In this document: one piece after another, positions 18,879 through 19,336 of the stretch
Position numbering within the stretch: position 1 is the stretch's first letter
Layout of the letters: each line of letters begins with the position of its first letter
Assembly: GCF_044647545.1 (NCBI RefSeq)
Contig: NZ_CP172818.1
From: Escherichia coli
GTDB taxonomy: Bacteria > Pseudomonadota > Gammaproteobacteria > Enterobacterales > Enterobacteriaceae
Strand: one strand, 5' to 3'
DNA: 64,000 nucleotides
Position numbers and translations under genes: made by a program
Notes under the pieces: generated by a model
What the model was told of the DNA's origin: nothing
What the model saw: the letters and a program-made list of their open reading frames with translations, nothing else
The model's database searches: none

Positions 18879-18910
18879 AAATGGCGCTTTAAGAAGCGCC
18901 ATTTTTTTAT
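18879..18910 (+). terminator. rho-independent terminator after fdnI
   Basis: atggcgctt-taaga-aagcgccat hairpin followed by a run of seven T. Confidence 0.75.
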
Positions 18911-19191
18911 TGCGTAACCAGACGGCGCAGTCGCGACACATCCACCGTTTTTTCAGCCTCTGCCAGGCTCCAGGCGTTTTGCAGATTCAGCCACATTTGC
19001 GGCGAACTGCCGATCACCACGGAAAGTTTAATTGCCATTTCTGGCGTCAAAGCTGCTTTTCCGGTCAGCAATCGGCTTGCCGTTGAGGGAGCAATTTCCA
19101 TTGCTCTGGCAAACTCGCGCAGGCTGACATTAAGTTCGTCCAGTGATTCCTGAATAATGTCTCCTGGGCGGGGATGATTGGCCATTTTCAT
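18907..19191 (-). CDS. yddM: HTH-type (HigA-like antitoxin family) DNA-binding protein
   Basis: Trimmed to MKMANHP (ATG at 19191-19189), 94 aa; helix-turn-helix region. Confidence 0.8.
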
Positions 19192-19336
19192 CAGTGTCTT
19201 TACTCTCAGTAGCGTTCCTTCACCAGGAACACTATCATTATTGTTCCTTCCTACGCAACAATAATCCATTTAGCCATTTCATGTTGGAGAGTGTGCGATG
19301 CTGCGACCCGAACATGGCAGTCGCAGCAAAGGCCTC

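Follow-up and report, generated by a model that had tools for sequence, protein, structure and literature searches.

How does an antitoxin gene come to stand alone in a bacterial chromosome, and what keeps it there? This question is raised by yddM, a small gene between fdnI and adhP in the stretch of Escherichia coli DNA analysed here (64,000 nucleotides, referred to as the window in the following). A preliminary description, made from the letters of this DNA, had recognized a HigA-like antitoxin with no room for a partner toxin, and had offered to read it as an orphan antitoxin or as an autonomous regulator, possibly the remnant of a degraded toxin-antitoxin module. We have followed the locus through the complete genomes of E. 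coli and through representatives of other bacterial species, and we have compared its alleles, its promoter region and its coding sequence. From these analyses, we consider it very likely that yddM is the surviving antitoxin and autorepressor of an ancestral chromosomal higB-higA type II module, whose toxin gene was deleted and whose orphaned antitoxin has stayed functional in the manner proposed below.

YddM as a HigA-family antitoxin

The yddM coding sequence lies on the minus strand at positions 18907–19191, including the stop codon, and its open reading frame and profile matches identify the product as a HigA-family helix-turn-helix antitoxin of 94 residues. In profile searches, YddM scores 93.7 bits against the HigA model TIGR02607 (antidote_HigA; cutoff 47.7) and 39.1 bits against the Pfam family HTH_3 (PF01381; cutoff 23), which bears out the earlier assignment of a 94-residue helix-turn-helix protein to this family. 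The protein has also been crystallized: the PDB entries 2ICP and 2ICT, labeled ‘antitoxin HigA’ and named as YddM of E. coli CFT073 in a review (PMC3968373), are 100% identical to YddM of the window over 94 residues, and through this identity to solved structures the HigA fold can be assigned to it. In RefSeq genomes, the product of yddM is WP_000781370.1, a HigA family addiction module antitoxin, which is annotated alike in genomes where the toxin gene is present, frameshifted or missing.

The start codon of the 94-residue form agrees with the first position of the family model, with the crystallized protein and with the RefSeq annotation. Upstream of it, the frame remains open as far as an ATG at 19269, which gives rise to a 120-residue ORF that is annotated in some databases. 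The additional stretch (19192–19269) crosses the operators described below, would be impossible in toxin-bearing alleles and is missing from the crystallized protein; the longer ORF is probably an annotation artefact. As to the wider surroundings, E. coli FDAARGOS_497 shares 99.9% identity with the window over 901 bases around the locus, in an arrangement unlike that of K-12.

The gap between adhP and yddM

The stop codon of adhP occupies positions 19337–19339, leaving a gap of exactly 145 nt (19192–19336) in front of yddM, the length that the preliminary description had estimated and judged too short for a toxin gene. A translation of this gap in three frames on both strands yields nothing but ORFs of 25–48 residues, namely one of 25 residues on the minus strand (19238–19315) and two of 28 and 48 residues on the plus strand, and the small toxin ORF that would have contradicted this judgment is absent. 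The tblastn search that had been suggested for the gap was conducted with ten HigB-like toxins and found no remnant of a HigB coding sequence at 19192–19336, its best match of 14.6 bits being noise. A tblastn search of the entire 64-kb window with ten HigB-like toxins likewise detected no HigB-like gene (best match 20.8 bits, E ~0.5). In this DNA, yddM is a solitary antitoxin gene without an adjoining toxin ORF or toxin remnant, and not one half of a complete higBA module.

Toxin-bearing alleles in E. coli

A different picture emerges from the species as a whole. Among 5426 complete E. coli genomes, the yddM locus was found in 5413. A HigB-like toxin gene is located between adhP and yddM in 1331 of the 5426, about a quarter, and the toxin-less upstream region of the window recurs in 4080; with 5411 genomes in total, these two classes cover essentially all genomes that carry the locus. 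The toxin gene measures 279 nt and encodes a protein of 92 residues, which scores 64.4 bits against PF05015 (HigB-like_toxin), and its stop codon overlaps the start codon of yddM in the sequence TGATG. It is intact in FDAARGOS_1290, for instance, and a pseudogene by a 1-nt deletion in SK1144 and in O25b:H4-ST131. In an evenly spaced sample of toxin-bearing loci, the resulting frameshifted form of 278 nt accounted for 12 of 29 full-length sequences, or roughly 40%.

This locus has been described before. The ParE-2/HigA-2 system (TA20) of AIEC NRG857c and UPEC CFT073 (Bustamante and Vidal, 2020; PMC7232551) is encoded at the same place, with an antitoxin gene of 285 nt, a toxin gene of 279 nt and a 1-nt overlap between them, and its antitoxin is 100% identical to YddM of the window. 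The window, unlike TA20, contains the toxin-less allele. The same study reported that, of the TA20 pair, K-12 and HS have the antitoxin gene alone, and the antitoxin-only state of yddM in these two strains is therefore already published. It compared a handful of strains, without the operators, the deletion junction or the allele frequencies. To this, we add a census across the species, the ancestral state, the common junction, a promoter with two operators, evidence that the protein is under purifying selection, and two rearrangements that recur in the operator region.

Two further chromosomal systems of E. coli invite comparison. YbaQ (PDB 2EBY) is a HigA-family helix-turn-helix protein as well (E = 6e-9 to YddM), but it is encoded at another locus, has 113 residues and is distant in sequence. 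The gene for its toxin, ParE-1, occurs in NRG857c, has become a pseudogene in CFT073 and is not found in K-12 and HS (PMC7232551), and in K-12, YbaQ is treated as an uncharacterized transcription factor of the Xre family that binds DNA in ChIP-exo experiments (PMC6237786). The HigB-HigA system of K-12 (YgjN-YgjM) resembles the yddM locus in family name and toxin-first order, but belongs to a different subfamily, and its HigA has 138 residues. In a mirror image of the yddM locus, ygjN-ygjM is complete in K-12, but an orphan higA is all that is left of it in NRG857c and CFT073 (PMC7232551). With yddM, ybaQ and ygjNM taken together, E. coli strains carry complementary sets of solitary HigA genes (PMC7232551).

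Relatives in other species and the direction of change

A scan of one genome per bacterial species for relatives of YddM resulted in 80 loci. In 58 of them, an intact toxin ORF ends within a few nucleotides of the antitoxin start, in 11 the toxin is disrupted, and at 11 no toxin was detectable; two of the last group, from Chimaeribacter californicus and Erwinia sp. S63, retain about a dozen codons from the end of the toxin gene and nothing more of it. By this comparison, toxin decay with retention of the antitoxin is a recurrent process in the YddM family.

Several of these loci share not only the gene pair but also its location. In four Escherichia representatives (E. albertii, Escherichia sp. 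MOD1-EC7003 and two labeled E. coli), an intact toxin gene lies directly upstream of yddM, with fdnI downstream, and the same pair stands beside fdnI in 12 of the 14 Citrobacter representatives, in Pluralibacter and in two Enterobacter-like species. Even the overlap between the two genes is shared: it reads TGATG or TAATG in 12 of 14 loci from Escherichia, Citrobacter and related genera, and CACGCATG in two from Citrobacter. The preliminary description had proposed a search for intact higB-yddM pairs in other Enterobacteriaceae and had accepted that its reading would fall if the homologs of yddM never occurred with toxins. Such pairs exist, in 1331 of the 5426 E. coli genomes as well as in E. 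albertii, Citrobacter and other Enterobacterales, and an intact toxin accompanies the antitoxin at the 58 species-level loci mentioned above.

Since the pair is found beside fdnI in E. albertii, in other Escherichia, in Citrobacter and in other genera, the absence of the toxin from the window is a loss. Judged by this distribution, the toxin-first pair beside fdnI is the ancestral state and that of the window a derived one. Moreover, the window allele has kept the promoter and the operators that precede the toxin gene in its relatives, which argues for a deletion and against a primary absence. The relatives hold an intact pair, and the window still holds the promoter, both operators (O1 and O2 in the following) and the last codon and stop codon of the toxin gene, as one would expect of an antitoxin orphaned by toxin loss.

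Beside an intact yddM homolog, the toxin has been disrupted independently in many genera, by an internal deletion in Citrobacter sp. FP75, by a nonsense codon in Cedecea davisae and by frameshifts in several Serratia. In the pandemic lineage ST131 of E. coli, the toxin gene is the 278-nt frameshifted pseudogene, and an orphan yddM has been reached by a route other than the deletion seen in the window.

Anatomy of the deletion allele

The window sequence was aligned to alleles with an intact and with a frameshifted toxin gene, to those of K-12 and O157, and to eight more toxin-less genomes. One and the same deletion junction is present in all nine toxin-less alleles that were read, including that of the window, which indicates a single event. 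On the yddM side of the junction, the alignment identifies the hexamer CACTGA (19191–19196, minus strand) as the last sense codon (His) and the stop codon of higB, the latter overlapping the ATG of yddM just as in the toxin-bearing alleles. Between this hexamer and operator O2, a 17-nt junction or filler sequence, GCTACTGAGAGTAAAGA (19197–19213, minus strand), replaces about 290 nt that comprise higB and its ribosome-binding site. When the filler was compared with either end of higB, the alignment was no better than for shuffled sequences, 499 of 500 of which reached the observed score. The Shine-Dalgarno match of yddM itself amounts to −3.1 kcal/mol in the window, as opposed to −5.9 kcal/mol in the toxin-bearing alleles.

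Upstream of the junction, about 85 nt differ from the toxin-bearing alleles beyond what a simple deletion would leave. In a patch upstream of O1 (19260–19298, minus strand), the toxin-bearing alleles are 46 nt longer and about 35 nt cannot be aligned. Because of this difference in length and the unalignable nucleotides, the deletion event appears to have been either complex or old.

The intergenic regions on either side of yddM contain hairpins. Just after adhP, at 19299–19328 (minus strand), the sequence GCTGCGAC...GTCGCAGC can form a 10-bp stem in toxin-bearing and toxin-less alleles alike. We considered this hairpin as a terminator and rejected it, as it lacks a U-tract, has a z-score of −1.41 and was not called in a terminator scan; since it is not terminator-like, read-through from adhP into yddM would be possible. 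Between the convergent genes fdnI and yddM, in turn, a hairpin terminator at 18878–18905 (unstranded) combines a 12-bp stem with a T-run on the plus strand. This second intergenic region is variable: a REP-containing cassette of about 178 bp is present there in two tandem copies in K-12 MC4100, in one copy in O157:H7 and in none in the window, where the site corresponds to ~18858–18906. In K-12 and O157, the cassette also duplicates the terminator hairpin between fdnI and yddM, and in some genomes an IS200-family transposase gene (tnpA) has been inserted at the same spot.

Promoter and operators

The region spared by the deletion contains two inverted repeats on the minus strand that we interpret as operators. 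The first, O1 (19243–19259), reads GTTGC-N7-GGAAC and overlaps a −35-like hexamer, TTGCGT (19253–19258); the second, O2 (19214–19230), reads GTTCC-N7-GGAAC and abuts the putative −10-like hexamer GATAGT (19231–19236, minus strand), which lies 16 nt downstream of the −35-like element. A scan of the locus for consensus promoters returned none at a threshold of 9 of 12 matching positions, the two hexamers together matching at 7 of 12. Their assignment is based instead on conservation between species and on published data for RNA polymerase, according to which sigma-70 binding has been reported between adhP and yddM in K-12 (PMC3946193).

The conservation becomes apparent when toxin-bearing loci from Escherichia, Citrobacter, Cedecea, Buttiauxella, Edwardsiella, Erwinia, Pantoea and Rahnella are compared. 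In 28 of 35 such loci, the pattern GTT[GC]C-N7-G[GC]AAC occurs twice, near −58 and −29 relative to the toxin start, with 28–31 bp from one copy to the other. Across the 28, the half-sites are constant and the 7-nt spacers variable, O2 takes the same place relative to O1 and the −10 element, and the equivalent −10 hexamer is GATAGT, GATAAT, TATACT, TATAAT or TATAGT in most cases. Within the 64-kb window, O1 and O2 are the sole matches to the pattern. The yddM locus thus has, as predicted sites conserved in sequence across 28 related loci, the inverted-repeat operators in its own promoter that are typical of the HigA family.

The inner half-sites of O1 and O2 together form a perfect palindrome, GGAACA-N10-TGTTCC (6-10-6; 19226–19247, unstranded), the only copy without mismatches in the window. 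We considered and rejected this palindrome as an operator in its own right, given that its two halves stand 1 nt closer together in five related loci and 2 nt further apart in another, with the 5-7-5 repeats unchanged; in the light of these loci, it is probably a by-product of the two flanking sites.

The closest studied relative is the HigB-HigA system of plasmid Rts1 (Proteus vulgaris; PDB 4MCT, 4MCX and 6CHV; PMC12266136), in which the toxin gene comes first, as in the intact E. coli allele. The intact E. coli toxin matches Rts1 HigB, a ribosome-dependent endoribonuclease, with E = 8e-32, including the C-terminal YEDYH motif, and YddM matches Rts1 HigA with E = 1e-18, the two having 94 and 104 residues, respectively. 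Both systems have a pair of operators, each an inverted repeat, in the region of the −35 and −10 elements, but the operator sequences differ, and the distance from O1 to O2 is 29 bp in the window compared with ~22 bp in Rts1 (derived from the contacted bases; PMC12266136). They further differ in that the Rts1 module is borne on a plasmid and that of E. coli on the chromosome, and in the missing toxin of the window. In Rts1, HigA alone represses the promoter Phig ~211-fold via O1 and O2, operators that overlap with the −35 and −10 elements; each operator binds one HigA dimer, and HigB does not act as a co-repressor (PMC12266136). By analogy, orphan YddM should be able to repress its own promoter without a toxin.

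In many toxin-less genomes, the operator region has been rearranged. In 1061 E. coli genomes, O1 is inverted: the 11 nt GCGTAGGAAGG between the perfect 9-nt inverted repeats ATTATTGTT and AACAATAAT (19237–19265 in the window) are flipped, so that O1 remains an inverted repeat and the −35-like TTGCGT is replaced. The inversion looks as if it had arisen at a hairpin or by template switching and had then turned into a common allele. In 183 genomes, 29 nt have been deleted between the GAAGGAAC direct repeats that O1 and O2 contain (19214–19259 in the window); the deletion has fused the two operators and removed the −10-like hexamer, leaving yddM intact. With O1 inverted in the one group, and O1 and O2 fused and the −10 element lost in the other, it is doubtful that autoregulation of yddM is strictly conserved.

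Selection on the orphan antitoxin

Regardless of these rearrangements, the 94-residue ORF is intact in every allele that was read. The nine toxin-less yddM alleles contain 12 synonymous and 3 nonsynonymous polymorphic positions, which, at ~69 synonymous and ~213 nonsynonymous sites, corresponds to a ratio near 0.08 in a sample that, with nine alleles, is small. Pairwise, as many as 10 synonymous and no nonsynonymous changes separate these alleles. By these figures, the YddM protein appears to be under purifying selection in genomes that have lost the toxin, although recombination with toxin-bearing strains could contribute to its conservation.

Several published datasets speak to a function in the laboratory strain. 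In K-12, YddM has been found to bind DNA by ChIP-exo, with a conserved motif that is one of six called palindromic (PMC6237786). A CRISPR-based single-cell perturbation of yddM resulted in expression changes that are consistent with its binding sites (bioRxiv 10.64898/2025.12.20.695731), and the yddM deletion mutant of the Keio collection is hypersusceptible to epetraborole, with complementation absent (PMC12457515).

Alternative explanations

Two alternatives concern the origin of the solitary gene. It could be argued that yddM is not an orphan at all and that the 145-nt gap codes, on one strand or the other, for a small toxin missed by the annotation; short ORFs of 25 residues (minus strand) and of 28 and 48 residues (plus strand) do exist there. 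None of them, however, resembles a HigB or RelE toxin in tblastn searches, and they overlap the operators; what is more, the 25-residue ORF has neither of its two ATG codons in the inversion allele of 1061 genomes, and the 29-nt deletion allele cuts away a part of all three. We regard the chance of such a hidden toxin as negligible. The direction of change could also be the reverse, with yddM starting out as a stand-alone regulator and a higB-like gene being inserted in front of it in some lineages of E. coli. Horizontal movement is known for type II toxin genes, and upstream of O1 the two types of alleles differ by more than a clean deletion, both of which would suit a gain. Yet the pair stands beside fdnI in E. 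albertii, three more Escherichia, 12 Citrobacter, Pluralibacter and Enterobacter spp., the distance between the operators and the start of the toxin gene is constant in 28 loci, and the toxin-less allele retains the final codon of the toxin and a stop codon overlapping the yddM ATG. Independently truncated toxins beside intact antitoxins in other genera show decay to be the usual direction, and a gain in E. coli seems highly improbable to us.

If the toxin was lost by deletion, as we favor, one may still ask why yddM has persisted, and two further alternatives address this point. It might be a functionless relic, whose decay is merely still to come: decaying toxin-antitoxin systems commonly leave orphan antitoxins behind (PMC7354431), yddM has a weakened ribosome-binding site, and its promoter region is rearranged in more than 1200 genomes. 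Neutrality would, however, lead one to expect synonymous and nonsynonymous changes in a proportion near 1:3, as against the observed 12:3, and it would leave the identical protein in divergent lineages and the intact ORF in all alleles read without a reason. It also sits poorly with the DNA binding of YddM in vivo in K-12 (PMC6237786), with the altered expression upon its perturbation (bioRxiv 10.64898/2025.12.20.695731) and with the epetraborole phenotype of the Keio mutant, uncomplemented as this is (PMC12457515). We thus find a neutral relic quite unlikely. Alternatively, YddM might be kept to neutralize a related toxin in trans, encoded on a plasmid, in a prophage or at another locus, in line with the proposal that orphan antitoxins serve as anti-addiction modules (PMC7354431). 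HigB-family toxins are common on enterobacterial plasmids (454 plasmid records match), and the cognate toxin segregates in a quarter of E. coli genomes. But barring a few records with the same chromosomal module, the identity between plasmid toxins and the cognate toxin does not exceed 59%, and that between the accompanying antitoxins and YddM does not exceed 57%. These values make cross-neutralization uncertain and lend no specific support to a role against plasmid-borne toxins, and the 64-kb window has no HigB-like gene elsewhere. The toxin that YddM most likely meets is the cognate one that segregates in E. coli, and retention for neutralizing a related toxin strikes us as unlikely, if worth bearing in mind.

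A third possibility is compatible with toxin loss and selection: YddM may have been kept for a new job, either as a transcription factor with targets beyond its own promoter or as an immunity factor against a re-acquired higB allele. We put this forward tentatively, as a possibility to which we give less than even weight. If true, the inversion of O1 and the fusion of O1 with O2 would represent a rewiring of expression once the coupling to a toxin had become dispensable.

A model for the orphan YddM

From the protein family, the deletion and its direction, the conservation of the operators and the purifying selection, as established above, together with the DNA binding established in vivo for K-12 (PMC6237786), we propose the following course of events. 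In a lineage that now makes up about three quarters of sequenced E. coli and includes the window, K-12 and O157:H7, one deletion removed essentially the whole of higB and its ribosome-binding site, and spared the promoter, both operators, the last toxin codon with its stop codon and an intact yddM. YddM would continue to be made from the old promoter, with its presumed −35 and −10 hexamers, possibly supplemented by read-through from adhP. As a dimer, it is predicted to bind O1, over the −35 element, and O2, just past the −10 element, and to repress its own transcription without a toxin, as HigA of P. vulgaris does. Because it is identical to the YddM of toxin-bearing strains, it should have kept its neutralizing capacity and should still bind the cognate HigB, were the latter to re-enter the cell. 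In K-12, YddM would in addition occupy other sites on the chromosome.

This model gives substance to the supposition in the preliminary description that yddM is an orphan antitoxin or autonomous regulator and possibly the remnant of a degraded module, as intact pairs at the same locus and the retained promoter and operators support it. It does not overturn current views. Rather, the yddM locus provides a well-populated example of chromosomal toxin-antitoxin decay, in which the toxin is the first to go, through a deletion in one lineage and a frameshift in ST131, and the antitoxin persists under purifying selection, to be later catalogued as an ‘uncharacterized transcription factor’. Consequently, the ChIP-exo, knockout and CRISPR data on YddM of K-12 are to be read as data on a former antitoxin, for which the first target to expect would be its own promoter.
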